Assembly: GCA_965649765.1 (NCBI GenBank)
Contig: OZ287756.1
Location: 33,108,001 to 33,172,000, forward strand
Reading direction: 5' to 3'
DNA from: Bispira polyomma
Taxonomy: Eukaryota
DNA: 64,000 nt
A program made the translations under genes and the position numbers. The notes beneath the pieces are model-generated. The model did no database searches, was not told the DNA's origin, and worked only from the letters and a program-made list of their open reading frames with translations. Below, piece by piece: positions 18,156 to 57,013 of the stretch (position 1 is its first letter; each line of letters starts with the position of its first letter).

Positions 18156-20246
18156 TGTGAGATGTTGTTCATTTAGTTTCTTGCACTATGATGTAATCCA
18201 CTTTCTCCGATATTCTTTGCCCTAAAACAGTAAACAAATAGGTACATTATATAATACTATATAATGCAATATTTTAGATGTCTGTTTGCCTCCCACTCTT
18301 TATATCTCCTTAATTCCTTGAATAGTTATTTATATTTGTACCAAGATAAATAAATTGTACAAATTTCTGTACACAAATTAGTAGGTATAATTCAGACAAC
18401 GAATGACATAATTATTAAGCAACCATATTAATGATGGGATTTGATGAAATTGATTGAATTAGAGATGGGAAGTTGGGTAGTTAGAAATTACATGTCAACC
18501 ATCATATCTACCTTGATGGACAATGCTCTTTTAAAAAGTAACCTTGACTACTGTTGATCACTGTCCAACTAACCTTTCTCAAAAGCTGATTGGCTTTCTG
18601 TTATTTACCAAATGTTTAGGATAAATCAACAGTAGGAATCAGTTTATCGAACCGCGATTCATTTGAAAATCTGGATTAAACAGAACAAACTTATGTTGAC
18701 TAATTTTTAAACTTATTCCATATGACAATTTGCAACATGGGTGATAAACCGAAGATTTTATCGAAAGACTCAGCCATTGTGTTAAACTTCATCTAAAATT
18801 ATAAATAAGAAATACCCTTCCCTTTAATTTATTTTAAAACATTTATTGGTCTCACAAAAGCTAATTGTATCAACCTATTCATCAAGATAGTCCTTGCATA
18901 CAAGTCTAACTCTAACCAAATGTTAAAGACAGATTGCATCCGGAGGAGTCATGCATGTTCTGTTCACCAGAGATGAAAAATTTTACAGCCAAGCTTATTG
19001 GTCTTATAGCGAAAGCCAAATTTAATAAGGATGGATGAAAACAATGTAAACCACCAAGCTTATTGGTCTCATTACGACAGCAAGATTTAATAATGATGGA
19101 AAAAAGCACTGTAAACCACGTATCTACAGCAAGTACCTGACAAACTTACCCACATGAAGGAACAAATGGAATTCAAATCCACATTGGTGTTATGTCAAAG
19201 TTCAGCAGGAACTGACAGCAGTATACATATACTAAAAATAGGTAAGGCTAACTGCAATAGTTTTTCTGTGAAATTGTTAACATAGAAAATATCTCTATGC
19301 ACAGCAACAGTAGTGGCATAACTGTATGTAAACCAAAGTATGCACCGCTTCCATACTGGAAGTTTTATGCTGAAAGAGTGACCTACTGTAAGGATTAACA
19401 TCAACTGATTTCCACTATGTCTATATCATGTCAAAAATAAATTAAACTTAAATGTATTGGTTTTATACGTGATATTGTACCTTGAGAGTTTTCTGTCACA
19501 TCGCTGATCCTTTAATTTTACTTATGGTATGCAGGGCAGAGGAGTTATTTACTATAGCATATCATTGTAAATGTGTAACGGTAGCGAAAAAACAAAACCC
19601 TAAAATCGAGAAGAGGCAAGTAAAAACTGCATGGAATGAAAGATGAATGGCAACGTATTGTATAATAACCTTAAATGAATGTTGATCCTGGATATTTTTA
19701 CCTCACTGAGACATATAGGTAGTTTTTGAATATTTAACATCCATGTTTTCTAGCGAGAACCTGTTGGTGTATGTTCACATCATATCATGCTATGGGACTC
19801 ACTAGAGTTTGTGAGGTGGCTTTAGCCAGCATGCTCAGTCGGGGGTGAACCTTAAAACTCCACCACCATAGCCCTAGAAAGACTACTCTAAGAAAAGCAT
19901 TTTGTTTTGACAACAAGTGTAATATTATTCTTAATTGGCTAAAACACTCTCTACAAATCTCATTGGTTGATCTTGTGGGTCACTGCTTGTGTTGTGGGTA
20001 TTTTCCTCACTTTGAAATTACAAACTGAGGTATCAACAGCTATAGTCTGCTTAAATTGGACGCCATTGTACTATTTTAACATTTACAAACTTTTTAGTTG
20101 TGATACTGGACTATTTTATCATTTATTTGACTGTTCAAGTGTTTTATGATTGATACACACATTCATTTAAAACTAACTTAGACAATATATATACATATAA
20201 ATACGGCCAATAAATTGAGCCAGTGAAAAAGACCAAAAAAATTGTA

Positions 20247-21385
20247 ATGCCTAGTGTGAAGTGTACCGGCTGTGGAGGTAGACATTCGAGACCTGTGGGA
20301 AGACGATGCCTAGTGTTCAAACGGGCACAACGCGAGGCCAAGCAGGATGAATGGATTGACGACAGCGAGATTATTCAGGAAGAAGACCCGGATACAGGGC
20401 AATTACAGCTTCCGATACAGCTTCAACTCCAGTCACAGGGTGAGTCGCTTCCAACACCGGAAGTTACACAGAATGAGGTGAACTTAACAATATTGTCAGA
20501 ACTGAAAAAACTCAATAGTAGATTAGAGTTGGTTGAAAACAACCACACGGTGAACAGTAAAAGTGTAAGTGAAAGTACAAGTAAAAGTACAGCAGTAGTG
20601 ACCTCTAGTCCTAATATTAGCAGGGCTCAACTTAGTCAGGCGTGTAGTGGAGCAAGTGCCCCTGATGGTGATGCCATCATACCAGTCTCAATGTGATTAA
20701 ATCTAATGATATACAAGTTCAGGTAGATCAAAGGCTGCGTGAGCTTGCCCTACTCAATGCCCAGGATCCTTCAGGTAAAAATCAGATCAAATCCCAAAGG
20801 GGTGGTTCAGTAGATGTTTTTGTTAAAAAGCGTGTCAAGTGGCCTCACCAGCATGTACTGGGAGGCTCCACAAAAGATAGAATAACGTACAACCATCTCA
20901 CATTTTCTCAGTTTGTATTGGGTTTCACTCGTAGTATTCAAGAAGAAAGTAATGCTCAAACAAAAGATCAAATGTTAGATTATTTATGTGATCTGTTAGA
21001 AGATGTCCAGGACTTTTCTTGGCAAGCTGCCAAGAATAGCCATGCAATACTCCTTTGTCAAATGGAGGAAGGTAAGATAAAATTGTCTGACACCAACAAG
21101 ATTGACAGAGTACGTAGGGCACATGCCCAGAGACATGTAGTTGGTAGTAACACAGGTAGTAATTACTCCAAATCACAAACCAAAGATAGGAAAGCAGGCA
21201 CACCTTGTTTTAGATTTCAAAAGGGGACATGCAAATTTACCAAGGATCATGAAATGGGGAGCAAAAACTTAATACATGTGTGTGAGTCCTGCTTTGCTAT
21301 GGGTAAGTTGTTTAACCATCCTGACAAAGAGTGTAGGAACAGAAAGTATAATTCAAAAAACGGGGGAGGGCCAGCACCAAATTAG
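20247..21385 (+). pseudogene. Element 1 gag-like ORF1 (one frameshift near 20695)
   Basis: N-terminal C-x2-C-x3-H-x7-C (CTGCGGRHSRPVGRRC), coiled-coil ILSELKKLNSRLELVE, C-terminal Cys/His clusters. Confidence 0.8.
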
Positions 21386-21402
21386 GCGCTGGCTAAAATG
21401 GT

Positions 21403-24214
21403 ATGAAATATTGTAATGGACAGAGACACAGGTCAGATAGTGTATATAATCATGTAGAAGGTAGTAATACTGAAGTCAAGTATAGACAGTATGGTGATAG
21501 AATTGTGTATAGTACAGTCATACCTAATGTAAAAGTATTGCATAATAATCAGTTTTCAGGTGATTGGAGAGAAGCATATAGAAATGCAGGTCAAAAGCGC
21601 ACATATGCACAGGCCCTGAAGCAGGGCACACGTGGTAAGGGTGTTGTAGTCAGCCAGCAGCAAGCTCGGTGTGGGCGAAACTCTCCCACTAATAGAACAG
21701 CAAATGCCCTCAAAGTTACCAACCATAGCATATCTAAATCAGCTGTTTCAAATGGCACTAGCATTGACAACAACAAATGTCCAAGAAGGGGTGATATTAC
21801 AAAACCCCAAAGCTCCATGGCCAACAGTCACAATAAAACCCTCATTTGAGACAAACAGGTCCCACTGGCTAATCGTTTTACTCCCCTATTGTCGGCCCTG
21901 GAACAAGACGATGGTCATAACGAAGAAAGTGGGGAAAGGGGGGATGTGATTTTCTCAAAAGTAGCATAAATAATGACACTTATGGACAGATTGGCAGTGG
22001 CATAAAAAATCAACCAGCTTGTGTCACAACTCCATTTTTAGCACATAAAAGGCGCAACATGTATGACAATGGGGATAAGGATAAAGGGAAAACCACTTCT
22101 ATTCAGTGGGTGGAAAACAACTTCACACCTCCACAAAGTGACAAAGTTAGCAAAAGTACGGGTGTTTGTAATATGGGTAGTGAGGAGACTCGTACTCCAG
22201 GAAATAAAACCAACATTGTCATAAACACCATTGCATGGGGTAATAGTTCGGTTGCTTCAAGTGAATGTAACAAACAATGTCATGGTAATGGAACCACACA
22301 AGGCAAGGACCAAAAAGTAGTATGGCAGGGAAAATTAACACCACATGCCCCAGTATTTATCCCTAACAAAGTACTTTCCCCGGTTGACTTGCTAAACGTA
22401 GATGGCAAATACGAATTGCAATTCTTGAGTAAAACCAACACAAAAGATATTGCTCAGCTAGTGCAATGTAAAAAATTATACGACACTTGTATGTTTCAAA
22501 ACCCTCAAGGCTTTGGCTTTATACCATTGAGTGATTTTGTTAGAACCCAGCATCAGGTTAGTGTCCATACTGAGGATATACATGATCCCATACTCTTACA
22601 TGAAATGGTTAAGGCAACGGGGAAGTACAATTTTCAGCAGGCACGTTATCCTGTCAAATCCCAACTAAAGGTTGATAACTGGGAAAGGTACTTAGAGCAT
22701 TACTGGGATTCACAGTTGATTGATTTCATCAAATTTGGATTCCCCCTAGGCTTTGATAGGAATGTTGAACTTCAGTGTGACTTAAACAATCACACATCAG
22801 CTACCCAATATCCAGCACATGTAGATACATATCTAAATGAAGAATGTGGTTTTAATGCAATTATAGGTCCCTTTGCCACCAGTTCTATTACACAGCTTCA
22901 CTGCTCACCATTTATGACTCGGGAAAAACCAGGATCAGTAAATCGCAGGGTAATCATAGATCTGAGTTGGCCAGAAGGTGGTAGTGTAAATGGGGGTGTC
23001 CTGAAGGACTCCTACTTAGGTACTAAATTTATCCTCACATTTCCTTCAGTTGATAATATAGTAGAGCAAGTAAAGTCCTTTGGAAAGGGCTCACATATAT
23101 ACAAGATAGATATTTCTAGGGCATTTAGGCATGTCAAGATAGATCCCAAAGACTATGATTTGTTAGGCCTCTACTGGAAAGACTTCTATATTGACACATG
23201 TCTTCCCTTCGGGTCTAGGCATGGTAGCCAGATCTTTCAGAGAATTTGTGATGGAGTAAGGTATATCATGAGTAAAAATAACCACAAGATTATCAATTAT
23301 ATTGATGATTTAATAGGCTGTGGTGTACCCAGCAAAGCTAAGGCAGCATATGGCTTCCTGTACCAATTACTAGGTGAGTTAGGTCTTACTATCAGTGCAA
23401 AAAAAGTTAGTTTCACCAAGTACACAATGCATATGTTTAGGAGTACTAATTGACACTGTACAAGGTACCATTTCTATTCCTGTAGACAAATTAGAAATCA
23501 TAGTCAAAACTTGTGCCACTTGGCAGGATTTTGAGGTAACCACAAAAAGAAAACTGCAGTCATTATTAGGTTCTCTCTTATATGTCGCAAAATGCTACAA
23601 GCCAGCTCGCATTTTCCTGAACAGAATGTTGACTACTCTTAGAGCTGCTAGTAATCCGTATTGTACTAGATGAAGAATTCCACAGGGATGTCAACTGGTT
23701 TCAGTCTTTTCTAGCTCAGTACAACGGTGTCACCTTTTTTAACCACAAGCCGGTGGCTGCAGTCATTGAATTAGATGCATGTTTAACTGGGGTAGGGGCC
23801 AGGTATGGGGATAGGTTATACACTCTACCAATTCCCCAGTCCATGCAAGGCATCGGAATAGTCAGACTAGAGATGGTAAATATTGTGGTGGCTTTGAAGG
23901 TGTGGGGTAGTTACTGGAAAGACAGCAAAGTGGTTATCCGTTGTGACAATAGTGCAGAAGTATCAGTGTTAAACACAGGTAGGACTCGAGACAAATACCT
24001 TGCAGCTTGTGCAAGGAATGTATTTCTCCTTACAGCTAGGCACAACATAGACTTAAAAGTAGTGCACATTTTAGGCATTAATAATGCAGTGGCTGATACA
24101 CTATCCAGGTGGATGGGCTCCAAATCTCAGTGGCAAATAATAAACAGGCATGTTAATGATCCTGTTTGATGTGACCTTAAGCAAGAGGCCTTCCACCTGG
24201 ATTGGTCCATATAG
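21403..24214 (+). pseudogene. Element 1 pol: long low-complexity N-terminal region, RT and RNase H, with several frameshifts
   Basis: ORFs 21403-21849, 22059-23453, 23395-23673 and 23753-24169 carry consecutive RT/RNase H motifs (FGFPLGF, RRVIIDLSWP, KIDISRAFRH, YIDD, LQSLLGSL). Confidence 0.85.
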
Positions 24215-24230
24215 ATTAAACATTATTGTA

Positions 24231-25210
24231 GGTACTACTCCAGTCATGAAGGCCCTGACCACTGGCGCCATTGGGAGGCTCACAGGAGCATTCAGACCCT
24301 CTACACAACGAGCCTATACGGCTATGTTTAGAAACTTCTTAGGGTTTTGCTGCTTCACAGCTATTTCAGTGCATAGAATTACAGTCCATGTCTTATTGGC
24401 ATTCATGGAATTCTTGGCCTACAATAACACCTCTCCATCTCAGGTGGCCAATTACATGGCAGCTATTAAGTCCAGTTTATCAGTATATGGCCTACCAGTT
24501 CATGTGTTTTCGGATAATAGGATCAAATTGTTCCAAAAGTCATTGTTACTGAACAGACCACTCACTGTAAAAATGAAAGGCATATTCCAAGTGCAGCACT
24601 TGGAAAAAATTGTCCAGTTGTGTGACACTATGTTTATGGGTCAGGTGTATAAATCCATTTATTTGTTAGCATTTTTTGCTTTCTTTCATATTTCAAATCT
24701 AGTTCCACATGCAAATAAACCATTTGATCCATCGGTTCACCTGGCCAGAGGAGACATCTTTTTTGCTCCACCAGGGCTGCAAGTACTACTGAAATGGTCA
24801 AAGACCATGCAATCAAAGAATAAGGTTCAGCTAATTAAAGTTCCCTCACTAGGTGGGTCTCCAATATGTCCTGTGAGAGCAGTAAAAAATGTATTGTCCC
24901 TTACACCTCGGGAAAAAAATCACCAGTTATTCCAGATTAAGAAAGCAGGTGGTTGGAGTCCACTAAATGATAACATGGTTAGGCAACATTTGAAGAAAGT
25001 GGTATTGACTTTAGGGCTAGATCCTTCTACTCACCTCTTTCATACCTTCAGGCGTTCAGGTACCACCTTGGCATTCAACTCCAACTTCCAATACAACAGA
25101 TCCAAAAACATGGTACCTGGACGTCTGATTGCATCTGGAAATATATTGTAGACACCCAGGACTCAGCTACCCAGGTGGCCACTACCTTTCAAAATCTACT
25201 TTCTCAATAA
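24231..25210 (+). pseudogene. Element 1 tyrosine recombinase (first catalytic Arg replaced by His; frameshift before the W/Y motif)
   Basis: LKWSKT, CPVRA, HTFRRSG; HGTWTSDCIWKY lies in another frame. FFHISNL corresponds to FLRLSNI and FYRLASL in relatives. Confidence 0.88.
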
Positions 25211-27120
25211 TACTACCACTAGTTTGGTTGTTTGGTGGTTATTTATTTATGTTATACTACTACGGTCTAATATATCTTAAACTTTACATGTATAACTATT
25301 AATTCATAATGTACTACATAAGTACAGCTCTGGTTAGGTAACCAGAATAATTGTATACTAAAAATAATAGAACTTATATATATATATACAGTATACTAAA
25401 TATTAAGAACTAAAAATGCATGTATCGGCACCAGGTTCATCTTATTCAAATCAAACATCTTAAAATCAAATTTCAAATTTATTTCATATCAAAAACTTTC
25501 AAAATCAAACATTTTAAATCTTAACTAATTATATATATAATAATTCATAAAATTGGGAACCTGTTGGCTTTAAGTTAAGGTTCCCTCATACCTATGAGGT
25601 CACCTTAGCTTAAATAGAATAAGTAATATGGTGTGTAACTGTAACATAGTTAATTATTAAATATACTTACAATTGGCAACAGGTACCTTGCATTTATTCA
25701 TTAAACTCAAAAATTTTACAATTTCAATTAGCTAAGTAATTCATAATTCCCATTCTCAAAACCCATGGTACCTGGTGCCCTTGTTAGGGTGACCTTAGTC
25801 ATTTAAGGTCACCCTCCAAATGTTTTGTGTTGTACATAAAATGTAGTAGTAGTAAAATAAAATTTTATACCCGCAATACTCAGTGTACTCACTGGTCACT
25901 CAAGGTCACCCATAAACTGTTCGACAGAATAATTTGACAGAATAAACTCCTTATTTTTTTTATTAATGCAAACAATCTCCAAAGATATATTAAAATCATT
26001 ACAGCCAACTTAGCTCAGAAATCAATATAATTCACTGTACGTAAGTAAAGGGAAAACATGGACATGTCCTTGACATTATATGTTGGTCCTGTGATGGCTT
26101 CATTAACACTAAAATAGCAGCATTTTTGTGAGATTTTCTAAATACAAAAGGTGAACAGCGAAAAACCAATAATTTCGAATATTTACGACACATTAAGTGT
26201 GTTTAGAAGTATGATGTTACATATTTAGAATGATTTTCTATAGTTAACAACTCTGTCGCTAACAGTAACCCATAAAATAAAAAAGCAGATGTTTCCACGA
26301 CAGATGTTTACATATAAAGGTGAAATGTCAATCTATTGAGTTGGAATCAAAGCAGTACAATATAGCTACAAGAGTCGTCTTTTAAAAAAGGTACATGCGC
26401 ACAATGTGAAATATACTAACGTTGATATAGTAACTATATACTCAGACAGGGAGCACCTAATAGCAATATATCAGAATGAAAACAACAACAATATATCGAA
26501 CACTGCTCAATTTGTATTGGTTGATTGCTTCCAACCAATCCATAAAAGCCTTACATATAATTTCTAAGATGGCGATCTTTCTAAAATAAAAACAACATTA
26601 GTATACGCCTGATAAAAAACAGGCATTACTGGTTAGTCAGTGAATTTTACTACAGTACCAAATTTCACCAAAACCGATTTTATTGAATTTAATAATGTAA
26701 AATGTAATACGCATAAATGAGTTCCATTTCACAAAGTTAATGCCATATATTGTCAAAAAACGCCCAATGGCTAAATTCACTGACTGACAAGTAGAGATAA
26801 TTAACCAACCTGTACAGTACAAGTTAACAATCCACATCTGAGAAGTATCTTAAATTGAAGAGTATATCGTCTAATATGTCTTCATTACTGTCCCTCTACA
26901 TTTGTAAATCAACAATGGCCCAGATACTTGTTTTCCATATGAATAAGTAGGTGTGTATGTAAGATACACTATCCCAAAAAAAATCATTGGCCTCATAAAT
27001 AACACTTATGATTTATTTTTTTTATTTACAATTTAATAGGGAAAATATTCAAACACTGTCTAGTTGGCCTTTCGGCTCAGCATTGATTTGATTTAAATAA
27101 ATAATTTTTTGTTTTGTTTG

Positions 27121-31589: not shown

Positions 31590-32860
31590 CCAGTGTAAGG
31601 GGACAGTGTTGAGTGCATTTATAATTTGACAAAATAAATAAGATAAGAGTTATTTTAAGAAATATCCCTTTTAATACATCTAATAATATTAATAAGTTCA
31701 CTGAAGAGTTTTAGTCAACCTGTTGTGGCATATATACACTGGTATGCCAAGCAGCACAAATGGACCTAATTGTCATTAATTTATCTTGCCCATTTCTGTA
31801 TTAATATGTATACCCTAGTGCACATAGGTTGTTTTTTTTATCTCTACTTTGTTCTCATTGATGGGGACACCTAGCATAGTAACCAAGTTCCTAAAACAAT
31901 TTTTAAGGCATATCCAATACCTTGATAGAAAGCTGCTCCCGAGGGTAACCCAAACGGGATACTGACATAGAAAGCCCCACCCCACTTAATGCAGGGAAAT
32001 CTCTAGGATAAGTACATAGATGTATTTATCGCCTTTGTAAATCAAGTTTAAAAATACAAGCGCCTTTGTCCAGCTTTTTAACTCTAGCCAAAATGTTATC
32101 AGTAATTGGGTATTTTAAAGATGAAGGTGTGTCATCATACTCATTAATTGGAATGTAGTTATTTACAGTGGCACACCTGGGAAGGGACAAGTGAACTATA
32201 ATCCATCTAGATTGGTCTGGTTTTGGCCTAGTAATTAAAGGTGCAGCATGGAATTCCTTAAAAAGAGAAGCAGCAAGAGGGCCTACAATTGCATTAAAAG
32301 ACACTTCAGTCCTAAAATACTTGTCTGCATCTGTAGAAAATGTCATAGCTGAATTATGGTTCTGAACAACGTTATTATATTTAAATGCTGTGGAATCAAT
32401 ACTGAGAAAGAACCCAAACTCTAAACAATTACAGACTACATAAAATGTGTAACTATACCTTGAATGCTTCCAGGCTGTAATATTAATGTTTGAAGGAGCA
32501 ACCACTCTGTCAACTAGGACAACTCCACATCATACTGCATGAGATTAGCATGATATAACACACACATAATTTGTGCTTCTGCCTGTCCATTCTGCTCTCA
32601 AGTGATTGTACTTCATCCAACACCTGATACAATTTGTAAAGAACATCCTCCTTTCTGGACTTCTTATTCTGTGTTTTGGGAAGACTGTATGTACCACAAT
32701 CTAAAGACTCTCCACAGGTTGCTGATCATCTGTTTGTGCATCAACCAGGTTAGTCTGTATCAGATTACTCTTGTGTTTTGTGTTACATTTATCACAATGT
32801 CTCTTCCTAGGAACCATGATGTATAAAAACGTGTTCAGATAAAACTAGGTATGTGTCCTA
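31590..32860 (-). mobile_element. Decayed, internally deleted YR element (gag 5' end and RT fragment)
   Basis: LEFGFFL, NHNSA, AIVGP, ITRPKPDQSRWIIVHLSLP, LKYP and FKLDLQR match the RT of elements 1 and 2; 32570-32860 is homologous to 14870-15150. Confidence 0.82.
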
Positions 32861-34286: not shown

Positions 34287-35591
34287 TCAGTCCCCATTCA
34301 TGAGTATGTTAGGTGATTTACACCCAATTGTTCCAGGTGCAATGTATCGTTTGTCTAAGTGTGGTACATTGAAAAAGTCACAAATTTTATCTGTCTGTTC
34401 TTTAACCTCCATGGTAAAATCGTCAAAGCTGTACTTCTTTAAGGCATGCATACTTATTTGACTTCCCCTCTGTGAATCATGGCTCATGGCTGTCTTAATG
34501 GCATCTGCATCAAATGGTAGATGGCAATGGTTAAATACTGCTTTGAAGAAATGAGTAGGGTTATCAATAAGATCTTCATATCGTATTCCAACAATTTTCA
34601 TGCCGCTAGTCGTAAAATCGATGTAACATCTCATCAGTGAGGCCCATAAGATTGAAAAAATGTGAAGCTTTGAAAGTACTCTACATTGAAAATGTTCTGA
34701 TGGCACGCCAAATTGACTAACAATGTATTGTGTTACCTTAGATGACCGACGTCCGAGATAACATGCCAGTGCTGCCATAGGCATTTCTTGAGATGCACGG
34801 GCAATAGATTTACATACTGCTAAGCCATCTCTGTACATGAATATCTTGTATGATTCTGGAACCACCTTACCAAACATTGGTAACTCCATCATTAAAAGGG
34901 CTTGCAATTTGAATACATATGCCTGAATGGCCTTTCCATGAACTGGTTTGCACAAGAATGCTAAGCAATCATGAGTATATTGGAGCATCTCTACTTCATT
35001 TAACACTCGTTTCAGTTGTGTTAATGCATTCAATGCATATGGTTCAGAATAAGCCATGCAGCAACCTGTTTCTGCAAAGACTTGTGTCATAAGAGTAGAC
35101 CCACATCTTGAGGTATTTCCTATGAATATAATCTTTACTTTAGGTAACCCTATCTTTTGTCCCAAAATATGGAACACATGGACAGGCATAATAAGCAGAC
35201 GATGCACAAGCTTCCATTCTGCCACCCTAAAAAATGCTTCTGCGTCAGACCTAGTGGGATCAACTCCCTTGCCAACCTCAATAAAAAGGGCTTCCTTGTG
35301 GTTGAAGGTGTATAAACTCACTTGGTTATTTAGAACATACTCAGGATCCACAAAACATCTATGCCAGGTGATGAAGTTGTCAGAAGCAGATGGTTGGTTT
35401 ATAGGATCTACTTTGTGTCTGTATAATATGTCAAGAACTTGTATCGAACCCTTATAGGAAGTAACATCATGGTTTTTGCGAATTCTGAAATATGTTCCGC
35501 TAAAGAGCCACAGAACTTGACGACACAAATTAAATATGCCACAACAACAAAGCCACAGAAAATGCTTGAAGAAAAGTAACCAAAGGCTCAT
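34287..35591 (-). CDS. Sulfotransferase-like protein, copy B (434 aa)
   Basis: NTSRCGSTLM, YRDGLAVCKS, RYEDL; colinear with A without indels. Confidence 0.85.
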   Translation of the reverse strand: MSLWLLFFKHFLWLCCCGIFNLCRQVLWLFSGTYFRIRKNHDVTSYKGSIQVLDILYRHKVDPINQPSASDNFITWHRCFVDPEYVLNNQVSLYTFNHKEALFIEVGKGVDPTRSDAEAFFRVAEWKLVHRLLIMPVHVFHILGQKIGLPKVKIIFIGNTSRCGSTLMTQVFAETGCCMAYSEPYALNALTQLKRVLNEVEMLQYTHDCLAFLCKPVHGKAIQAYVFKLQALLMMELPMFGKVVPESYKIFMYRDGLAVCKSIARASQEMPMAALACYLGRRSSKVTQYIVSQFGVPSEHFQCRVLSKLHIFSILWASLMRCYIDFTTSGMKIVGIRYEDLIDNPTHFFKAVFNHCHLPFDADAIKTAMSHDSQRGSQISMHALKKYSFDDFTMEVKEQTDKICDFFNVPHLDKRYIAPGTIGCKSPNILMNGD

Positions 35592-36575
35592 TGTGAAATG
35601 TTGTTCATTCAGTTTCTTGCACTATGATGTAATCCAGTTTTTCTTTGCCCTAACACAGAAAAAAAATAGTTAGATGTAAAAAATATTATATAATGCAATA
35701 TTTTGGTTGTGTGTTTACCTCTAATTACTATACAAAAATTAGTAGGTATAATTGTGATAGCCAAGGTCGCCAAAAATAAGCAACCACTTTAATGAGGGGA
35801 TTTTAAATCCAAATCGGAGTTTGATGGGAATTGGATGAAATTTCAATGAATTAGTCAGGGGTTAGAAATTACATGTTAACCAGCAGATCTACCTTGATGG
35901 ATAATGCTCTTATAAGTAGTAACCTTAATTACTGCTGATCCCTGTCTAATCTTTCATATTATTACAACTATTTGCCAAATGTTAAGATTACTCTACATAA
36001 TAAATCAGCAGTTGATCCAATCTACATTCATATGACAATCTGCATTAGCTGAACAAACTGATGTCTCCCCATTTTTAAAATATATTCCTACTTGGCACCG
36101 TCAGTAATAAACCGAGGATTTCTCTCAGTCATTGTATTAAACTTAATGTAACACTACCAATAAGAAATACTCATTTCTATTCAAATATGTAATATTTATT
36201 TTTAAAGCATTTCTTTTTGTTATAAAAGTTAATGCTTTTCATCTATTATTATAGGCAGTGCTTGCATCTAATGCTAACTACACAAAAAAAAACTAGACAA
36301 ATTGCATCAAAGCAGACAAGTCTGTTGTACAAGAGATAAAAATATTTTGGCAGCCTTTTTTGTTTTTCAGGAGGCCAAGCTAAATTAGAATTCAGTTGGA
36401 GTTTACAACAGCTTCGGTCTCATCACGACAATTATAATTAAAGAAAGATGGAAGAAACCAATACTAAAGCAGTGTAAACCATGGACCTAGCAGCAAGTAC
36501 TTGACAAACCTCAAGGAACAAATGAAGGAACAAATGGGATTCAAACCCATACTGATGTTGGGCCAAAGTTTAGTA

Positions 36576-39130: not shown

Positions 39131-41455
39131 GTTATCGGATGAATTTAATATTAATCAACTAGCAAAGAACATCAGACCATACATCATATTCTGTGATGGT
39201 GGTGCCATTCTCAATGGAAGAACCCTTTTCAAAATAAAAACAACATCAGGGTTTGTTATAAAAAACATGCGTTATTGGTCATCCAGTGTATTTTGCCAAC
39301 CAATACCGAATTTTACCATTCATAATAAACTACAGTTTATAAACAATTTTTTTTTTAATTCAGTGATGTAAATGTGTTGTAATATGCATTAAATAAATTA
39401 ACGTTGTATGTTGTCAAAAACGTCAAATGGTGAAATTAACTGGCCGGCGAAATTCAGTGGCTCACCAGTACACAATTAACTAACCTAAACCTGCACTAGT
39501 TAACAATCCACATCTGTAGTAGTTACAGCAATACTGAAAAGTATTTCAAATTAAACAGGAAATATCCTCTAATGTTTCTCCATAAGTGGCCCCCCACATA
39601 TGCAAATCAACAATGGCACACATACTTGTTTATCTCATGATTAAGTAGGCTTCTGTATATAAGACACACTATCCCTCAAAATCATTGGCCTCATAGATAA
39701 CACTTACAATTACTTTTTTTATTTATAATTTAATAGCAAAGATATTTTAGCACTGGCCTTTCCACTCTGCATTGATTTTACATGAATAAATAAAATTATT
39801 AGGAGAAGTTAATTGGGTAAACTAGTGCATGATTTACTGCTGTATATAATAGTTACAGCTTCTCTTAATTTTTCCTTGTATTAACACAATTACTTGAGGC
39901 AATGTATCTAATTTACATGGACCATCGGTGCCTCTTTACAATACCAATGGATATGGGTGAGAGTCAGAACTTTTTGGAGGAGAGGGTACCATTATAAAGT
40001 TTAACCATATCAGTGAGAAAAAAAACACAATCATCGATTTTTAAGATCTATAGTATATCCCACCAGTACATTGATCCATTTTTAAGATCTATAGTATATA
40101 CCACCAGTATTTTTTGTGTGACTACTGCAGCACATAAAATAAACTAGACTTTGCCCAAGTATTTGTAAATGTATAGGGAGCCTTTTGATGTAGATCTGAT
40201 ATATAAACAAACATAACAGACAAAAACTTAGATATTTTTGCATAGAGCCACAAATGTAAACAAAATATAATATCCCACAATATTCCCAACTAATGTTTTG
40301 GTTGTCAATCTACAACTTTGGGGATACAGATTTGTTTATTACCCAACAGGCACATCAGTTTAATGTTGAATCAAAGAGTGAAATCACAGTTGGTGTCAGG
40401 GTAAAATGCGAATGGAAATTATAGTCAGTATCCGACTTTGATTTTAGGTTGAAGCAACGTTAAATTCAGGTCGAAACAGCATTGATTTCCGGTTGCAACA
40501 ACATTGATTTCAGGTTGAAATAACATTGATTTGAGGATTAACTCATGTTGATTTCTGGTTGAAACCATGCTTTTCTTTTGATAAAAATTCAATTAACAAT
40601 ATAGTATGTCTTCCAAAATGTATGTATAAAAAAATTAACTCCTCACCAGATTAAAACAATATACAGCACTCAGTACACCACAAATGTATCAGCAAAACAA
40701 TTAAGGTAAGTAAACCTGGTGCTAACAATCTTTGATCGTTTGTAACACAGCAATGAATATCTTCATTTAAGCTCATTAAAGCTCCACTCCATTGTTAATT
40801 ACTATTCTTATTTAACAAAGGATGCTCATCAAAATGAAAACCAGAATTATCAAGTTGTGGTCTCATATAAACAACTTTAATCAAGCAGTTATATTAAGTT
40901 ATTTTGACCAAATACTTTTCATTTTAAACTGTTGGTTTCTGGTATTTATTTTTGTTCAATGTCGACAACCAAATATCAACCTGGTGTCTACGTCAACAGT
41001 AAAAATATGAATTTATAGAACAGTTTCCCAAAGCTGCACCATTGAGCGTTGAGGAAGGTAAGTGAACACGGGTAAGTATGAAGAACACCATGTGTAAACA
41101 TTTGGGTATTTTATTACAACACATAAAATATATATATATATATACATACTTCCTACGTAACCTCTAGAGTTAAGGTCACCTTAAGCTAAGGTTGCTTTTC
41201 CTTGTGAGGTGAGTAAGGTGACCTTAATCCCAGGGATTCCTAAACTTAAAACTTAAGGTTAATATAACTAAGGCCATCTTAAGGCGACCTTAACTTAGGG
41301 GTTTTTCCTAGCTGTCTGTCAATTGAGGTTAACCCTTAAGGAGGCCCTAAACCGGCTACTACTATTTGTTAGTACTACTACACACACTATCTATTTACAC
41401 TATTTGTATATGTTGTATATAATTATATGACTAAAAGCCAAACCCAAAAGTAGTG

Positions 41456-42438
41456 TTATTTTGTTGTCGTTGTAGCTAAATGGGAGGAGAAAGTATTGGC
41501 AACTAGACCTGCAGCTGTTGGGGTCTTCACCAAGTACCGCCATATGGCGTCAGAGCGCCAACCCCCATGGACCTTGATGTACTGTAACTCCACATTATGA
41601 TCGAAGGCCCAGGAGGCCCCTGATCTACGTAGTGCGTGAAACCCGAACTCCCGTGGGTTCAAACCCACTAGCTGCACTGCTGACCTAAAGACTTTCCTGA
41701 CCTGATAAGCTGTGATTATTGTTTTGACATTCTGATGCGTGAACTGAAATAATGCTTCCTTATTGGAAGTGTTCTGAGGGAGATAGGCTCTAAGTGCTGT
41801 TGTGGGACATAAAGGTGACCCCGGAATGAGAGGAATCTGTACCACTTGGACCTGACCCGACACCTGCATGTTTTTCGCACTTTTACTGATGATGTGGGCC
41901 CCAGGGGACCCCCAAATCACATCCTCTTGTGTGGGGAGTCTCGATGGCTGAAACATTGAGGCTCTGTTTGGGACTAATGAGGCCAGCCGATAAAACCCAA
42001 AGAACCCTAACAGCACAATGGACTTATATACCTGGTGGCCAGGGAATCCTTTAATTTGTAGGACCAGCTGCTGCAGCTTGGTAACTGAAAAAAACCCCTT
42101 TACTCTACACCTCAAAGGGGCATTGTTTGAAACAGATTTGACCATAAGGGCTATCTTCTTATGAGCCAAAACCTGTGTGGGGAAATCATATATTTGGAAG
42201 TAATGCTTAATTACACTAATGTAACCCATGATTGTTTGGGCTCTGAGACCCTGCTGAGCCAGGAACTCGACAAATAATAAGATGGACTGCAGTTCAAAAG
42301 GAGAGTTGATCTGTAGATGTGACAAAAAGCTGTGAACAACATAAACTTTGCCTGGTAGGCTGTGGATGTTCTAGGGCGAAACCCTGTAGCTACTCGTGTG
42401 TTGACATCCCTCATTAACTTCCTGGCCAGAGCTGAACC
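41456..42438 (-). pseudogene. Element 2 tyrosine recombinase (catalytic residues intact; one frameshift near 42325)
   Basis: GFYRLASL (R), HALRRSGA (HxxR), HGGWRSDAIWRY (W, Y). The N-terminal FRPRTSTAY is in ORF 42211-42450. Confidence 0.9.
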
Positions 42439-42446
42439 TACAATGT

Positions 42447-44112
42447 TCAAATATCATAGTTAGGGACTAGCCAGGCTATGTCCACGGGAACCCATGCACA
42501 TGTTTTGAGGAAGGCAACTTGAGTCTTATTAATATTTTTGTAATGATCCCATCTGGACAGTATATCTGCGTAAATGTTATCCACACCCCTAATGTGCTCA
42601 ACTTTTAATTCAATATTATGTTTTGCCTGGAGGAGCCAGAGGGTCCTAGCGCATGCTGTTAAGAAAGTATCCCTACATTTAAACTTATTGAGGACATGCA
42701 CCACTGCCAAATTGTCACAGTGTATGCAGATTGTTTGGTCTACCCACTTTCCCCCCAAGCCTTAAAAGCCACAATGATATTAATCATCTCGAAGTGGACA
42801 ATACTAAGATTGTTTACATAAGACTCAGGAATGTTAATGGCATATACATTGTTTCCCCAAAACGCCCCTAAACCTTTAAGGGAGGCGTCAACAAAAACAT
42901 GTTGTACTGCGTGTTGACTTCCATGAATAGCAGTGACCCCATTGTACTCTTCTAAAAAGGCACAACACCAATTAACGTCCTTGTGAAAGCCCTCAGTGAG
43001 GGGAACCGACACGTTTGGGGGGGTGCCCCTTAGTACTTCTAAAATTCTGTTCACAAACAATCTCGCGGGCTTGACACATCGGTGCACAAAGATTAATTTG
43101 CCTAGTAATTTTTGTAAACCTCTCCTGGTTGCGTGAGTTCTGCTCTGCCAGGCGAGACATATTTGTTTTACTTCATAAAGCTTTCGTTCCGGTATGGTCA
43201 GCACGCCCGTTCTCGCATTAATATTAATTCCCAGACAAGTCATACTCGTGGTGGGTGCATCGACCTTGTCTTGGTTGATGGGAAGACCGAGTGTTGTTAT
43301 TAAATTCTTTAGTACGGTGAAACCTTGGTTAGCCTTTCCCGGATACGCAATACCGATACAGTCGTCTAAGTATGAGCATACCCAGTGGCCGTTCTTATGC
43401 ATTAAATATGTGACGCAATCGGTGGCCATCTGGCACGCGCATGCGCCCGACTTGAGGCCGAAGGGAACACTAATATCAACATAGTATTGTTGCTTCCATT
43501 TAAGTCCCAACACTGGGTAGTCTAAAGGATCGGATCTCAAATTTCTATATGCTCTTTTTAAATTAATTTTATAAAGTAAACAATCTGGGCCTAACAAGGC
43601 TATTTTCTGCACTATATCATCAATTGTAGGGTACTTGAGCTGAAATTCAATTCCATCAAACACATCTGAAGGGATACATGAATTAACACTTTTGCTTTTG
43701 GGCCAGGAAAGGTCGACAATAATTCTTCTAGAGCCATCTGGCTTGTCTCTAGACATGAGTGGTGAAATATGTAGTCTATCAAAAGGGATGTTTTCTAAAG
43801 GGCCAACTATAGCCTTATACTGGACCTCTGTTTGAAAATACGCTTCTACTGCCTGGGGATAATTAACCGCCGAGGAGTGGTTCTCTGCCTGTAAATTATA
43901 CTGAAAAGGCTCTCATATTTAATTGGGAGGGAACCGGAAGCCTTGCCCCTTTGTAATTGGGAATCCCCCTTTTTTCTACTATTGAGTGAGATTGTTTAAC
44001 CCATTCAATCATGTCACCACTCCCCACCATGTTTTTCCTATGATCTCTTACTTGGGGTTGGCATTTAACACCTGTCATTGGGATAAATCCCCTCAACCAT
44101 TCTGTGACATCA

Positions 44113-44145
<33 letters not shown>

Positions 44146-44834
44146 TTCAGTGTGAGAAGGGAGGCCTCTGTGATACTGGGGTAATTGGCTGCCTTTGTTT
44201 CTACTGTACTATGTACCTGAAGGTGGTCTGTGTTCCCTCCAAATTGACCCTGTTCAATAGCTGTGGTAAGATTAAAGGACTGACTAAAGGAACTGTCTAT
44301 GCTGTGACCCTGATATGAGGAATTCCTTATACTATATTCAGTGCTGTAAATATAGCTACTGTATAAACACGTGTCTAAATTGGCCCTGTGCGCCATGTTT
44401 AAACTGTGTAAACGTAAACTTTGATCTGAACAGACCCCTGGTTTACAACTTGTCACATCTATCATACTTTGCTCTGACCTTACTGAAACCCTGTTTATAC
44501 CTGAAACGTCAAAGACACTGTCACCATATAAACCACTATTACTGTTACCTATTACACTGCTACTGCCTAGTATCGATACAATTTTGCTATCACTATGACT
44601 GTCAGTACTGTTACTGGCATTATGACTGACTACTTTGTGGTTTGCTACTATGTCCTCATACCAGACTCTGTAACTGTTGTCACTATTAACACTGTTCATA
44701 TGTGGTTGCACACCTTGGCATAGATTATCTGTATTACGTCTATCCGTGTCTATAGAATGGTTATACTCGACTTTTACTACTCTGTGAATATTCTCCCTGA
44801 CAGGGCGTTCAGCCCCGGATACCTTTTGTGTCAA
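42447..44834 (-). pseudogene. Element 2 pol (RT and RNase H), frameshifted, with a ~25-27 codon deletion near 43905
   Basis: VPFGLKSG, YLDD, VDAS, HFEMIN, CDN, ADILSR. The W...FGFPL segment present in element 1 and the 32-kb remnant is missing. Confidence 0.87.
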
Positions 44835-44989
44835 TCTGACACCAATTACATTGGCAATGGCCGATATGTTGGTTAAACCAGAATTTACTGTTCATTATGC
44901 AATGGGTACATAAGCAGTGTTTTGAATGAAAAGAACTAGGTATCTGAGGGGCCGTGCTAACCGTACTGCCAGGAAGAGTATTTAAACTA

Positions 44990-46204
44990 TCAAACCCTCT
45001 GATCAGCCCTATCCTGATCTTTGTGACCCCCATTTTTTATTTTCCTATTGCATTTGCTCTCTGAATTCTCATAATTTCTGTTCACCGCTTTGTAGCAATA
45101 GCCACAAGTGTGTTTCAATAATTTTCCCCCCTCATAATGCTCCCCTTCAAATTTACAGGCTCCTTTTGCATACTTAAAACACACGTTAACTTTGTTAGAC
45201 TGTTCCCTTGGCATTGAACTCCCATTACTTCCTGTATCAACCGTTTTGATTGCCCTCTGCGTGAATCTCTGCCTGATCCTGTCGATTTCACTGAGATTAT
45301 CCCATGTGACCGAGCCCCGTTCAATTTCCGACAGTACTGCTGCATGCGCGCGTTTCGCTGTGGGCCACGATAGCTCAATGGCGTCTTGCATCAGCAAGTA
45401 TTGATATTGCATCATGTTCCTGCGCACCTTTTCATCCGGCTCCTGAACCACACACCTAGCGAAGCCCTGCACCCATTGGAATATTGTTAGCTCTTCATAA
45501 GTCGGCAGTTTCATGTTATCATTGAGCATGCAATGCTCATGGGGCCAAGAAACCGCAACACGTACTCTTTGGTCACCCAACAGATACCGCCCTGACTTAA
45601 TTCCCTTCTTTTTTACAGTACCTGAAACCTCCTCGCGGGACATGTCATCGTACAGGCGTAGACGTCTGTCGACTTCGTCCTGGACCTCAGAATCTGAGCG
45701 TAGGAAATCTAATGTGGGTAATTTCTGCACTGGTGACGTTTCTCGAGCACGACGCTCCCGACTGGCACCCTGTCCCTTGCGTGCCTTGGGAAAGCTATGT
45801 GCTGAGGGCTTGGAGGTGATAGAAAAGCCGCTTTCCCCTCGCCTTTCCTGGTGACTCACCCGTTGCTCCAAGTCTGTGAATCTCTCCAGCACCTGGTCTA
45901 ATTGGCTCATAACGTCTGCGTTACATACTCGTTTGGGTGTTTTCTTCCTTGATCTTCTCCCTACTATCTCCTCTTGTGATTGCGTATCTTCAGCTGGTCC
46001 GTCCGACGTCATGTTGGGTCTTGACTGTGGAACAGTGGAAGTACCTGGCTCCCTAGCCCTAGCTGCTTCCGAATCCGTGGAGGATATTGAGTGATTCCCC
46101 TTTTCCCCTGTACACAGGTCCCCTACTGGACCTGTGTGCTTAGATTTGCACACCAAACACATTTCTCTAGTTTTACTCCTGGTGTTATGTATCCTGGGTC
46201 CCAT
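44990..46204 (-). CDS. Element 2 gag-like ORF1 (404 aa, intact)
   Basis: CLVCKSKHTGPVGDLC zinc-knuckle-like N-terminus, coiled coil, WPHEH, C-terminal CFKYAKGACKFEGEH and CGYC; homologous to element 1 gag. Confidence 0.85.
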   Translation of the reverse strand: MGPRIHNTRSKTREMCLVCKSKHTGPVGDLCTGEKGNHSISSTDSEAARAREPGTSTVPQSRPNMTSDGPAEDTQSQEEIVGRRSRKKTPKRVCNADVMSQLDQVLERFTDLEQRVSHQERRGESGFSITSKPSAHSFPKARKGQGASRERRARETSPVQKLPTLDFLRSDSEVQDEVDRRLRLYDDMSREEVSGTVKKKGIKSGRYLLGDQRVRVAVSWPHEHCMLNDNMKLPTYEELTIFQWVQGFARCVVQEPDEKVRRNMMQYQYLLMQDAIELSWPTAKRAHAAVLSEIERGSVTWDNLSEIDRIRQRFTQRAIKTVDTGSNGSSMPREQSNKVNVCFKYAKGACKFEGEHYEGGKLLKHTCGYCYKAVNRNYENSESKCNRKIKNGGHKDQDRADQRV

Positions 46205-47169
46205 ATTGCAATTGTATCAATTGGGTTTGTTGTACAGTTAACACGTAAACAAATAAAACATATGTTGTGTAAAAAGCAACTTTAAAAACAACTTATAAAA
46301 CTGTGTATATGTCCAGAGAATTAAAACTTTTTGCTTGTACACCCACCAACTTGAAATTCACAATGAAGAGCTTGGGGGTTGTTTACTAGGAAAGCTAAAG
46401 TTTTGGCAGGAAAGCATTGTTCCCCTTAATTGTGGTCTTAATGAATTGTTTGCCACCTTATGCCCCCTGTCTGGGTGACACTTGTTTTACCAGAGAATTT
46501 ACCTTGTCACTATACTGTTGACATGTGTGTCCCCTGTTCTGGGTGATACTCATTTGATAACATAAAGAAATTTAGTCATACCGTCCTCATGTAGGACAGG
46601 GCCAGCTTAGGCAACTGATAACTGATGCTGCCTAATCCACGCATTCAACCTAATATATGGAATTGAGGTTGATATTGGGTTGTCAACGTCGACAACCCAA
46701 TATTAACCTCAATTCTAAGTTGAAATCAGGTTGTGTGCCCGCTGGTTAACTACTTGTTTTAGTAAGATACCAGTTAGTTATAAAAAATACAAATGAGTGC
46801 TTATGGCAAGAAAGCTTATTTTATTGCGATTATTGTGCTTTTTGTTTCCTTAAAATCCAAAGAGAAATAGGTGTGATATTTCAGATTAAATAAGGAAGAG
46901 CGTCAGGGACATTGAAGGAACAGCGTAAACAGCGTACGGTGCAGTATCTATGGTGTTTCTAATTTATATATTACGCAAAAGACATGTTTTCCAACTATAT
47001 CCATTAACATTTAATAATTCATTATTAAGGATTCACATGCACACATGGATTTTCTCCAACCTTTAACCTTAAAATGGGTAACCTATTGGTTACATATGTA
47101 CATACCATTAAACAGTCAATAGAAGATATTACAATAAAAATGCCTTGCATTATATTACCAAATGTACCA

Positions 47170-54702: not shown

Positions 54703-56034
54703 TCAGTACTCATTCGTGGGTATGTTAGGTGATTTACACCCAATTGTTCCAGGTGCAATGTATGGTTGGTCTAAGTGTGGTACATTAAAAAAGTCACAAA
54801 TTTTATCTGTCTGTTCTTTAACCTCAATGGTAAATTCATCAAAGCTGTACTTCTTTAAGGCATGCATACTTATTTGACTTCCTCTCTGTGAATCACGGCT
54901 CATGACTCTCTCAATGGCATCTGCATCAAATGGTAGATTGCAATGGTTAAATATTGCTTTCAAATAATCAGTAGGGTTATCAATAAGATCTTCATATCGT
55001 ATTCCAACAATATTCATGCCGTTGGTCCTAAAATCAATGTAACATTTCATTAATGAGGCCCATATGATTGAGAGAATGTGAAGTTTTGAAAGTACTCTAC
55101 AGTTGAATTCGTCTGATGGTATGCCCATTTGAGTGACCATGTATTGTGTTACCTTAGATGACAGACGTCCAAGGTTACATGCTAGCGCTCCCATAGGCAT
55201 TTTGTGAATTGCACGGGCCATCGATTTACATACTGCTAACCCATCTCTGTACATAAACATCTTGTACGATTCTGGAACTACCTTACAAAACATTGGTAAC
55301 TCTATCATTGAAAGGGATTGCAATATGAATACATATGCCCGAATGGCCTTTCCATGAACTGGTTTGCACAATAATGCTAAGCAATCATGAATATATTGAA
55401 CCATCTCTACTTCATTTAACACTCGTTTCAGTTGTGTTAATGCATTCAATGCATCTGGTTCAGAATAAGCTATGCAGTAACCGGTTTCTTCAAATACTTG
55501 TGTTAGAAGGGTGGACCCACATCTTGAAGTATTTCCTATAAATATAATTTTTGCTTTAGGCAACCCTATCTTTCGTCCTAAAATATTGAACACATGAATT
55601 GGCATAATCAGCAGGCGCTGAGCAAGCTTCCATTGTGCCACCCTGAAGAATGGTCCTGCTTCAGACCTACTGGGATCAACTCCCTTGCCAACCTCGATAA
55701 ATATGGCTTCCTTTTGGTTAATGGTGTATAAACTCACTTGGTTATTCAGAACATACCCAGGGTCAACAAAGCATCTATGCCAGGTGATAAAGTTGTTGGA
55801 AGCAGATGGTTGGAGTAATGGATCTACTTTGTGTCTGCGTAAGATATCAAGAACTTGTACTGAACCCTTGTAGGAATGGACATCATGGTTTTTGCGAATT
55901 CTGAAATATGTTCCGCTAAAGAGCCACAAAACTTGCCGACATAAATTATATATGCCATAACAACAAAGCCACAGAAAATGCTTGAGGAAAAGTAACCAAA
56001 GGGTCATTTTGAGATGTTGTTCATTCAGTTTCAT
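54703..56034 (-). CDS. Sulfotransferase-like protein, copy D (443 aa from the upstream ATG; 434 aa from the ATG shared with A and B)
   Basis: NTSRCGSTLL, SEPDAL, YRDGLAVCKS, RYEDL; closest to copy B. Confidence 0.85.
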   Translation of the reverse strand: MKLNEQHLKMTLWLLFLKHFLWLCCYGIYNLCRQVLWLFSGTYFRIRKNHDVHSYKGSVQVLDILRRHKVDPLLQPSASNNFITWHRCFVDPGYVLNNQVSLYTINQKEAIFIEVGKGVDPSRSEAGPFFRVAQWKLAQRLLIMPIHVFNILGRKIGLPKAKIIFIGNTSRCGSTLLTQVFEETGYCIAYSEPDALNALTQLKRVLNEVEMVQYIHDCLALLCKPVHGKAIRAYVFILQSLSMIELPMFCKVVPESYKMFMYRDGLAVCKSMARAIHKMPMGALACNLGRLSSKVTQYMVTQMGIPSDEFNCRVLSKLHILSIIWASLMKCYIDFRTNGMNIVGIRYEDLIDNPTDYLKAIFNHCNLPFDADAIERVMSRDSQRGSQISMHALKKYSFDEFTIEVKEQTDKICDFFNVPHLDQPYIAPGTIGCKSPNIPTNEY

Positions 56035-57013
56035 GCACTATGGTATAATCCAGTTTTTCTTATATTCTTTGCCTTAACACAGAAAAGAAATAGGTACATA
56101 TAGAAAATGTTATACAATGCAATATTTTAGTTGTGTATTTACATCTAATTACCACACATAATTGAGGTACAATTCAGACAACCCAGGTCATAAATAATAA
56201 ACAATCATTTTAATGAGGGGATTTTAAGTCTAAATTGGAGTTTGATTGGAGTTTGATGAAATTTCAATGATTTAGAGATGATGAGTCAGGTGATTAGAGA
56301 TTACATATCAACCATCATATCCACCTAGGTGGGCAATGCTATTATAAGTAGTAACCTTGGTAACCTTAGTAACCCTTGCCCATTGACAATAAATCTGACA
56401 CTCCTCAGGTGTGGATAGTTTGATTGCTTCCAACCAATCCATGAAGGCCATACATAATTTTTCTAAGATGGTGGTGCCCCTTTCAAATGGCAACGCCCTT
56501 TCAAGAATGAAAACAACATCGGCTAAAAAAATGTGTTATTGGTCAGGCAGTTATTTTTTGCCAACCACTATTAAATTTTTCCACCCATAATAAATTAATG
56601 CTATACTTTGTCAAAAACATCAAATGGTGAAATTAACGAGATTCAGTGGCTCACAAATACACAACTAACCAACCTGAACCAGCATTAGTTAAGAATCCAA
56701 AAGCACAGTAGTTACAGCAATACTCAGAAGTATCTAAAACTGAACAATATATATCCTCTAATGTTTCTCCATCAGTGGCCCTCAACATATGTAAATCAAT
56801 AATGGCACAGATACTCGTTTATCACATGATTAAGGAGGCTTGTGTACATAAGATACACTATCCCCAAAAATCATTAGCCTGTTAAACAACACGTACTTAC
56901 CATTTCGATTTTTTTAGTTACAATTTAATAGCAAAAACAAAATTTATTCACCTTTCCACTCTACATTTGTTTGATTTGAATAAAGAAACTTATAAAAATT
57001 AATTAATTTTTAT

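Follow-up and report, generated by a model that had tools for sequence, protein, structure and literature searches.

A repeat-less tyrosine recombinase element of Bispira polyomma is probably a collapsed copy of a Ngaro-type retrotransposon

Comparison with described tyrosine recombinase retrotransposons

Retrotransposons of the Ngaro type, which encode a tyrosine recombinase (YR), are described with the layout A1-ORFs-B1-A2-B2, in which the split repeats A and B accompany the open reading frames (ORFs; PMC8547959, PMC9210276, PMC3783388, PMC4157794). According to the accounts of Cafeteria Ngaro (PMC8547959) and of the Xenopus elements DIRS-53_XT and DIRS-54_XT (PMC9210276), gag, reverse transcriptase/RNase H (RT/RH) and YR lie on one strand, there is no methyltransferase, the internal repeats follow YR and solo AB remnants occur; the solo AB units of Cafeteria Ngaro are attributed to recombination (PMC8547959), and Xenopus copies without 5' or 3' repeats are mentioned (PMC9210276). 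We analysed a YR retrotransposon in a stretch of 64,000 nucleotides (the window) of the genome of Bispira polyomma (contig OZ287756.1, positions 33,108,001 to 33,172,000). This window element (41021..46652, minus strand, 5632 bp) has the ends TAGG...AAACTG, broken frames and the form A-ORFs-B, here called a monomer; a second monomer, element 1 (19810..25919, plus strand), belongs to another family. Layout and domains place the window element in the Ngaro type as a new member, and this broken copy probably collapsed by recombination between B1 and B2 after insertion, with loss of A2 and a spacer.

The window element and its relatives in the same genome (the window family) agree with the Ngaro accounts on each point: the gag, RT/RH and YR frames all lie on one strand (Pfam RVT_1 and Phage_integrase matches); B begins 14-20 bp past the YR stop and A2 comes after B1, placing the internal repeats downstream of YR; solo remnants are present; and no methyltransferase was found. 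They differ from those accounts in a unique spacer X between A2 and B2, in the lack of an SGNH hydrolase frame after YR, in exact A-ORFs-B monomers that equal or exceed the full copies in number, and in a conserved joint hairpin (ACTG/T...CAGT, the slash marking the crossover). Of 156 RT homologues 120 were listed, none of them with an informative name, and the Ngaro assignment rests on layout and domains. A literature search by title and the start of the abstract, with subscription papers and supplements outside its scope, returned neither exact A-ORFs-B monomers nor the hairpin reading discussed below.

Three other groups invite comparison. PAT-like elements (Pat1, TOC, kangaroo) share split direct repeats and YR-mediated integration but are described with a methyltransferase domain (PMC4157794); a methyltransferase after RNase H was sought in the window family and not found, with no Dam methylase match at E<=1 in nine proteins and RNase H running directly into YR. 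DIRS1-like elements (PMC3266345, PMC7192593) likewise combine RT and YR and are reported to make no target duplication, whereas the window family has no inverted terminal repeats, internal complementary region, methyltransferase or trinucleotide common to both ends. They are the origin of the expectation of NTT or GTT in the first-pass annotation of this DNA; NTT was not found at both ends (TAGG and ACTG, with TT after the 3' end in 4/31 copies of the window family and 3/74 of the element 1 family), and neither inverted terminal repeats nor an internal complementary region was found by self-blast or in the family architecture. VIPER/SIRE of Trypanosoma cruzi (PMC6681497) shares the order A1...B1-A2-B2, and SIRE, its A2-B2 part with an exclusive internal region of ~30 bp, is comparable to the solo A-X-B units described here; unlike the present family, it belongs to a kinetoplastid lineage and has YR ahead of RT in the described ORF order.

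Repeat architecture and the origin of monomers

The first-pass annotation took the window element for an att-like class without split repeats. Self-blast confirms that neither long element of the window contains a long direct or inverted repeat, only palindromes and hairpins of at most 46 bp; A2 and B2 are, however, present in nine full insertions of relatives ~98% identical to the window element. Searches of the genome with both element ends gave 41 matches each, and the best 40 candidates were scored. A census of the window family (39 fetched loci plus the window) comprises the nine insertions of the full form A1-ORFs-B1-A2-X-B2 and one truncated copy that keeps B1-A2; 12 A-ORFs-B monomers, nine with both ends intact, two clipped at the 5' end and one of a diverged subfamily; and a remainder of six solo A-X-B units, four partial A-X-b units, six B-side fragments and one unclassified locus. 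Repeat A, 327 bp (46326..46652 in the window, minus strand), recurs in full copies as segment 1-327 directly after B1, and A1 differs from A2 by 0-7 mismatches over ~326 bp in the six full copies compared; repeat B, ~421 bp (41021..41442, minus strand), also occurs twice in full copies; and X, 226-243 bp in full copies, is missing from the window copy. Spacer X is exclusive to the A2-B2 interval, and a C-rich box opens it in both families (L074:7775-8004; L173:7666-8240). One solo A-X-B of the window family (L097) sits inside a related YR element, ~65% identical.

The same forms recur elsewhere in the genome. Element 1 had also been presented as free of split repeats, but its family (89 loci plus the window) includes two full copies and six truncated copies with B1-A2-X-B2, besides 12 two-ended monomers and many 5'-truncated pieces. 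In a sample of other YR families (20 of 150 listed YR matches, selected because their YR frames are intact), 17 loci carry B1/B2, two of these being one duplicated locus, two are monomers and one is unresolved.

Goodwin and Poulter are said to have set out a replication model for Ngaro elements in 2004. By extension of the published model for the DIRS order, the transcript of a full copy would carry the B1/A2 joint, templating both ends, and the recombinase would join ACTG/T to an AT-rich site, homology not being required; a monomer, without the B1/A2 joint, would be a dead end. B1 x B2 recombination after insertion would excise A2 and the spacer and leave A-ORFs-B. Recombination between B repeats should yield monomers and that between A repeats solos, and both products are observed. 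On a tree of 21 copies, in which two long end branches stem from internal rearrangements, the monomer label changes seven times against a mean of 7.1 for shuffled labels (325/500 shuffles as low), and well-supported branches force at least six of the seven. Where a class that copies itself would group together on the tree, the monomers form no clade and are scattered among full copies; they are thus repeated losses. The tandem L087/L088 (C9, 49.42-49.43 Mb) has the structure A-ORFs-B-A-ORFs-B-A-X-B; its units show one difference in 5692 sites and lie ~0.5% from every other copy, and both of its B1 copies have a common base that neither their B2 nor any other aligned copy has. This tandem evidently arose after private changes had accumulated, by recombination between repeats after insertion.

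Two trends also speak for collapse after insertion, each with limits. Monomers of the window family tend to be older than full copies (private distance, median 1.22% against 0.46%), but the difference falls short of significance (p=0.08); the element 1 family, with only two full copies, shows no age trend (0.83% vs 1.07%, p=0.6), and a few monomers have little private change (L082, 0.30%; L077, 0.46%) and are thus very young. The share of monomers also rises with the length of B, from 2/18 (mostly 200-235 bp) through 12/21 (421 bp) to 12/14 (687 bp; p=0.006, 4e-5 and 0.14 in three contrasts), a trend confounded by the choice of the short-B set for intact YR frames, which makes it probably young. 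A length-dependent rise is likewise reported for solo long terminal repeats (LTRs; PMC7251063), and longer repeats are also reported to be more often deleted by RT (PMC3187697). Against collapse after insertion, no locus was found both full and collapsed, and no empty-site joint, in the available short-read contigs (three sets, one study), which cannot span B; 39 boundary pairs held no full and collapsed pair with common flanks, only a duplicate of L093 and one offset artefact. Comparison of B1 and B2 for chimeras gave scattered single sites and no clear inherited diagnostic sites, one of the single sites being common to B2 of L061 and its sister monomer L099, yet also to L090. Finally, the window site is six bases shorter than 31/37 spanning paralogue matches; since the host copy and its best paralogue are just 86% alike, the gap may be older than the insertion.

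Some of these points would fit an origin during retrotransposition, which we hold to be possible yet doubtful: RT would skip between the B repeats or never jump from B1 to B2, and the product would close into an A-ORFs-B circle with one junction, comparable to a 1-LTR circle, which the recombinase would insert directly. The ends and target flanks of monomers are the same as those of full copies, monomers are present among the very young copies and make up 12/14 of the complete copies of the element 1 family, and RT removed long direct repeats at >90% in one retroviral test (PMC3187697). Against this, the L087/L088 tandem is a rearrangement at the DNA level after insertion, and window-family monomers trend older; under the simple version without a jump, monomers should become fewer as B lengthens, contrary to what is observed; and a permuted A-X-B-A-ORFs-B is seen in 0/11 full insertions, so that internal joints are not evidently used. 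Loss after insertion is thus ranked likelier than loss during reverse transcription.

Two other explanations have far less in their favour. It is very improbable that the assembler collapsed the 1-kb B1-A2-X-B2 tail: although short-read contigs are unable to bridge B, the 75-contig assembly resolves the tail in the nine window-family insertions and in 17/20 other-family loci, together with the 5.7-kb tandem of almost identical units and a tandem duplicate of 4 kb. Still less credible is the headline of the first-pass annotation, a separate self-replicating YR class defined by a GTT core and short termini of att-like kind. Many monomers do have both exact ends, and imperfect arms near the ends are real; the ends, however, are TAGG and ACTG, close relatives carry A2 and B2, the monomers have no clade of their own, and neither the junction nor the target that was proposed occurs exactly anywhere in the genome. 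Full copies with A2/B2 repeats and ends that do not align at GTT are what the annotation itself named as refuting it, and the separate class is refuted. That annotation had left A-ORFs-B monomers as either a separate class or products of repeat collapse, and it is the second of these that the family bears out.

Element ends, insertion sites and the B/A joint

Genome-wide copies track the window copy to 46652 and 41021 and diverge beyond both positions, which extends the 5' end by 30 bp and shortens the 3' end by 2 bp relative to the boundaries drawn earlier (41019..46622). Among de-duplicated copies of the window family the 5' end reads TAGGTT in 20/26 and the 3' end AAACTG in 28/31, and the B/A joint of full copies is AAACTG/TAGGTT; GTT precedes the 5' end in 3/26. 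The letters quoted in the first-pass annotation are found at their given positions. The copies do not align at the GTT taken as a shared core, the 'GTT-AT' and 'catcaGTT' of the supposed 5' terminus are located 30 bp within repeat A, and in the 1.04-Gb genome neither the circle junction nor the empty target that had been proposed has a single exact match. With one mismatch these gave 3 and 16 matches, two pairs among the 16 lying ~7 kb apart and resembling A1/A2 of another family; searches with the terminal patterns gave 33 and 42. The interrupted miniature inverted-repeat transposable element that was to fix the ends is a hairpin-rich, repeated host element (upstream half at 46653..46750, other half at ~40900 to 41020), but the ends derived from copies differ from those it was thought to give, and the letters of uninterrupted host repeats at this site are not those of the supposed empty target. 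Element 1, said to end in AAACTGTT, truly ends at 25919, AAACTGTT being a minor variant plus two flank bases; 3' ends in its family are AGACTG in 62/74 and AAACTG in 4/74. Shared cores of T (after the 3' end in 13/31 and 21/74, against a background of ~0.33) and of TG (before the 5' end in 0/26 and 4/29) were tried and are unsupported in both families.

Joined flanks were compared for 11 informative insertions, two further rows being removed as offset artefacts. They are identical to uninterrupted paralogues in 7/11, spanning full, monomer and solo forms; three lack 2-6 bases in diverged hosts and one is mixed, and there is no consistent target duplication among the 11. Full, monomer and solo forms thus leave the same clean footprint of integration, which lacks a shared core and leans weakly towards AT: A or T occupies -2 and -1 in 23/26 each (window family) and in 27/29 and 24/29 (element 1 family), and A is enriched at -4 of the 5' flank (17/26 and 15/29). 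Four independent window-family insertions (L061, L093, L095, L099) lie at different positions of the same repeat family, three of them within arrays of >170 spanning matches, a possible target bias. Among 17 young 5'-truncated copies with an exact 3' end, six clear cases are flanked by host duplications (L160, 46 bp; L164, 52 bp; L191, 41 bp; L209, 10 bp; L223, 7 bp; L215, 6 bp). Unlike complete copies, these suggest one-ended joining completed by repair.

The inverted arms of ~15 bp noted in the first pass are real but subterminal, and no shared GTT goes with them: one arm (CAGTT...GCTG; 46603..46617, minus strand) lies inside A at element positions 36-50 and is predicted to pair over the B/A joint with the other, at the end of B (CAGC...AAACTG; 41021..41036, minus strand), the crossover following its final base. 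They match in 13 positions of a 16-column alignment, equalled by 83/5000 shuffles (285/5000 for element 1). In full copies the arms flank the B1/A2 joint; the crossover comes immediately behind the ACTG at the top of the predicted stem, and every joint examined reads ACTG/T, 25-35 nt and then usually CAGT. Within a fold window chosen after the motif was seen, the predicted best fold has the same outer stem in 16/17 joints from diverged families, z<=-2 in 11/17, and the fold of the sense strand is more stable than that of its complement in 15/17; the window-family joint has z -2.2 in 70 nt and only -0.38 in 91 nt. Pairs were counted in nine related rows of the third group, since automatic alignment of all families misaligned families 1 and 2: 90.5% of cells pair and three pairs vary on both sides, figures inflated by relatedness and by the fitted structure, and covariation is 0.143 vs 0.074 shuffled. 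Among possible relatives elsewhere, a first metagenome scan and viral contigs were empty, and a second scan gave three short contigs with no long repeats and no visible joints; with no joint obtained from other organisms, the hairpin is shown for the Bispira polyomma genome only. Two metagenome contigs (L300, L301) hold distant YR relatives (23-25% identity) with, by eye, a putative further frame after YR, as in Ngaro elements that bear a hydrolase.

The hairpin is a prediction; closed by the arms, it would probably guide the recombinase, possibly as the signal that the enzyme reads. A more tentative proposal is that Ngaro recombinases may recognise the B/A joint as a folded single-stranded hairpin, in the manner of integron attC sites. 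As described in PMC5027507, attC sites are likewise used by a tyrosine recombinase and have a stem, an unpaired spacer of ~5-7 nt, a second stem, a variable terminal loop and few conserved crossover letters; the joints here differ in having no AAC/GTT triplet at the crossover and in that the sense strand folds better in most of them, and the likeness is one of predicted fold only. The cut would fall at ACTG/T, at the top of the stem, and single-stranded cDNA would be joined to a non-homologous target by one strand exchange; DIRS-1 cDNA is reported to be mostly linear and single-stranded (PMC7192593). Such recognition would account for ends that stay fixed although no core is shared, for one-ended copies whose duplications vary in length, and for some monomers and solos as direct insertions; the one-ended copies with exact 3' ends and duplications of 41-52 bp fit one-ended joining and are compatible with an attC-like exchange of one strand resolved by replication, though no proof of it. 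It is also possible that the joint is conserved as an RNA structure or as a duplex site instead of a folded strand. On a minor reading the joint is a double-stranded core with a 7-bp spacer, to which L293 conforms perfectly and families 1 and 2 only poorly.

Coding content, neighbouring sequence and implications

Within the window element, all frames being on the minus strand, ORF1 (44990..46216; 408 aa stop to stop, Cys/His-rich C-terminus) is gag-like, an assignment made from position only, as it has no Pfam match. Pol, RT followed by RNase H, lies in pieces at 42740..44891 (frames 43896-44891 and 42740-43912; PF00078, 5e-9), and the YR frame (41456..42370; PF00589, 4e-6) has its R...HxxR...W...Y catalytic residues conserved in alignment. 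Breaks near 42323, 42747, 43910 and 44826 interrupt the frames of pol and YR, the first of them removing the N-terminus of YR. A cluster of short palindromes lies within B at 41150..41345 (self-blast, 41159-41185 vs 41278-41303).

Element 1 (A, 249 bp; B, 687 bp; ends TGTGAG...ACTG) belongs to a family whose 5' leader contains a 927-nt GT...AG intron in the 16 loci listed (for example L173:723-1649). The intron is exactly removed in element 1 itself (20168/20169, first GT) and in L181 and L245 (second GT, +7 nt), direct evidence that the family has gone through spliced RNA on at least two occasions. The window holds further YR element remnants (9484-10161, 11079-11430, 32026-32529, 60489-61019), and a search of the genome for YR gave 10134 first-look candidates, making this a very abundant group. 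A tandem array on the minus strand consists of intronless, 444-aa sulfotransferase-like frames (16851-18185, 34287-35621, 54703-56037 and ~50.8-52.1 kb; weak PF13469 match, 1e-4).

With collapse after insertion as the favoured origin, the repeat-less YR elements of this genome are to be seen as collapsed Ngaro copies, and their annotation is corrected to match. Monomers can outnumber full copies in families with long B, so that inspection of single copies and consensus libraries misclassify such elements. The literature found holds little experimental support for the integration of split-repeat retrotransposons. The conserved joint (ACTG/T, 25-35 nt, CAGT) offers a precise, testable substrate in the form of short oligonucleotides, with which one may ask whether a eukaryotic tyrosine recombinase is active on folded single-stranded DNA.

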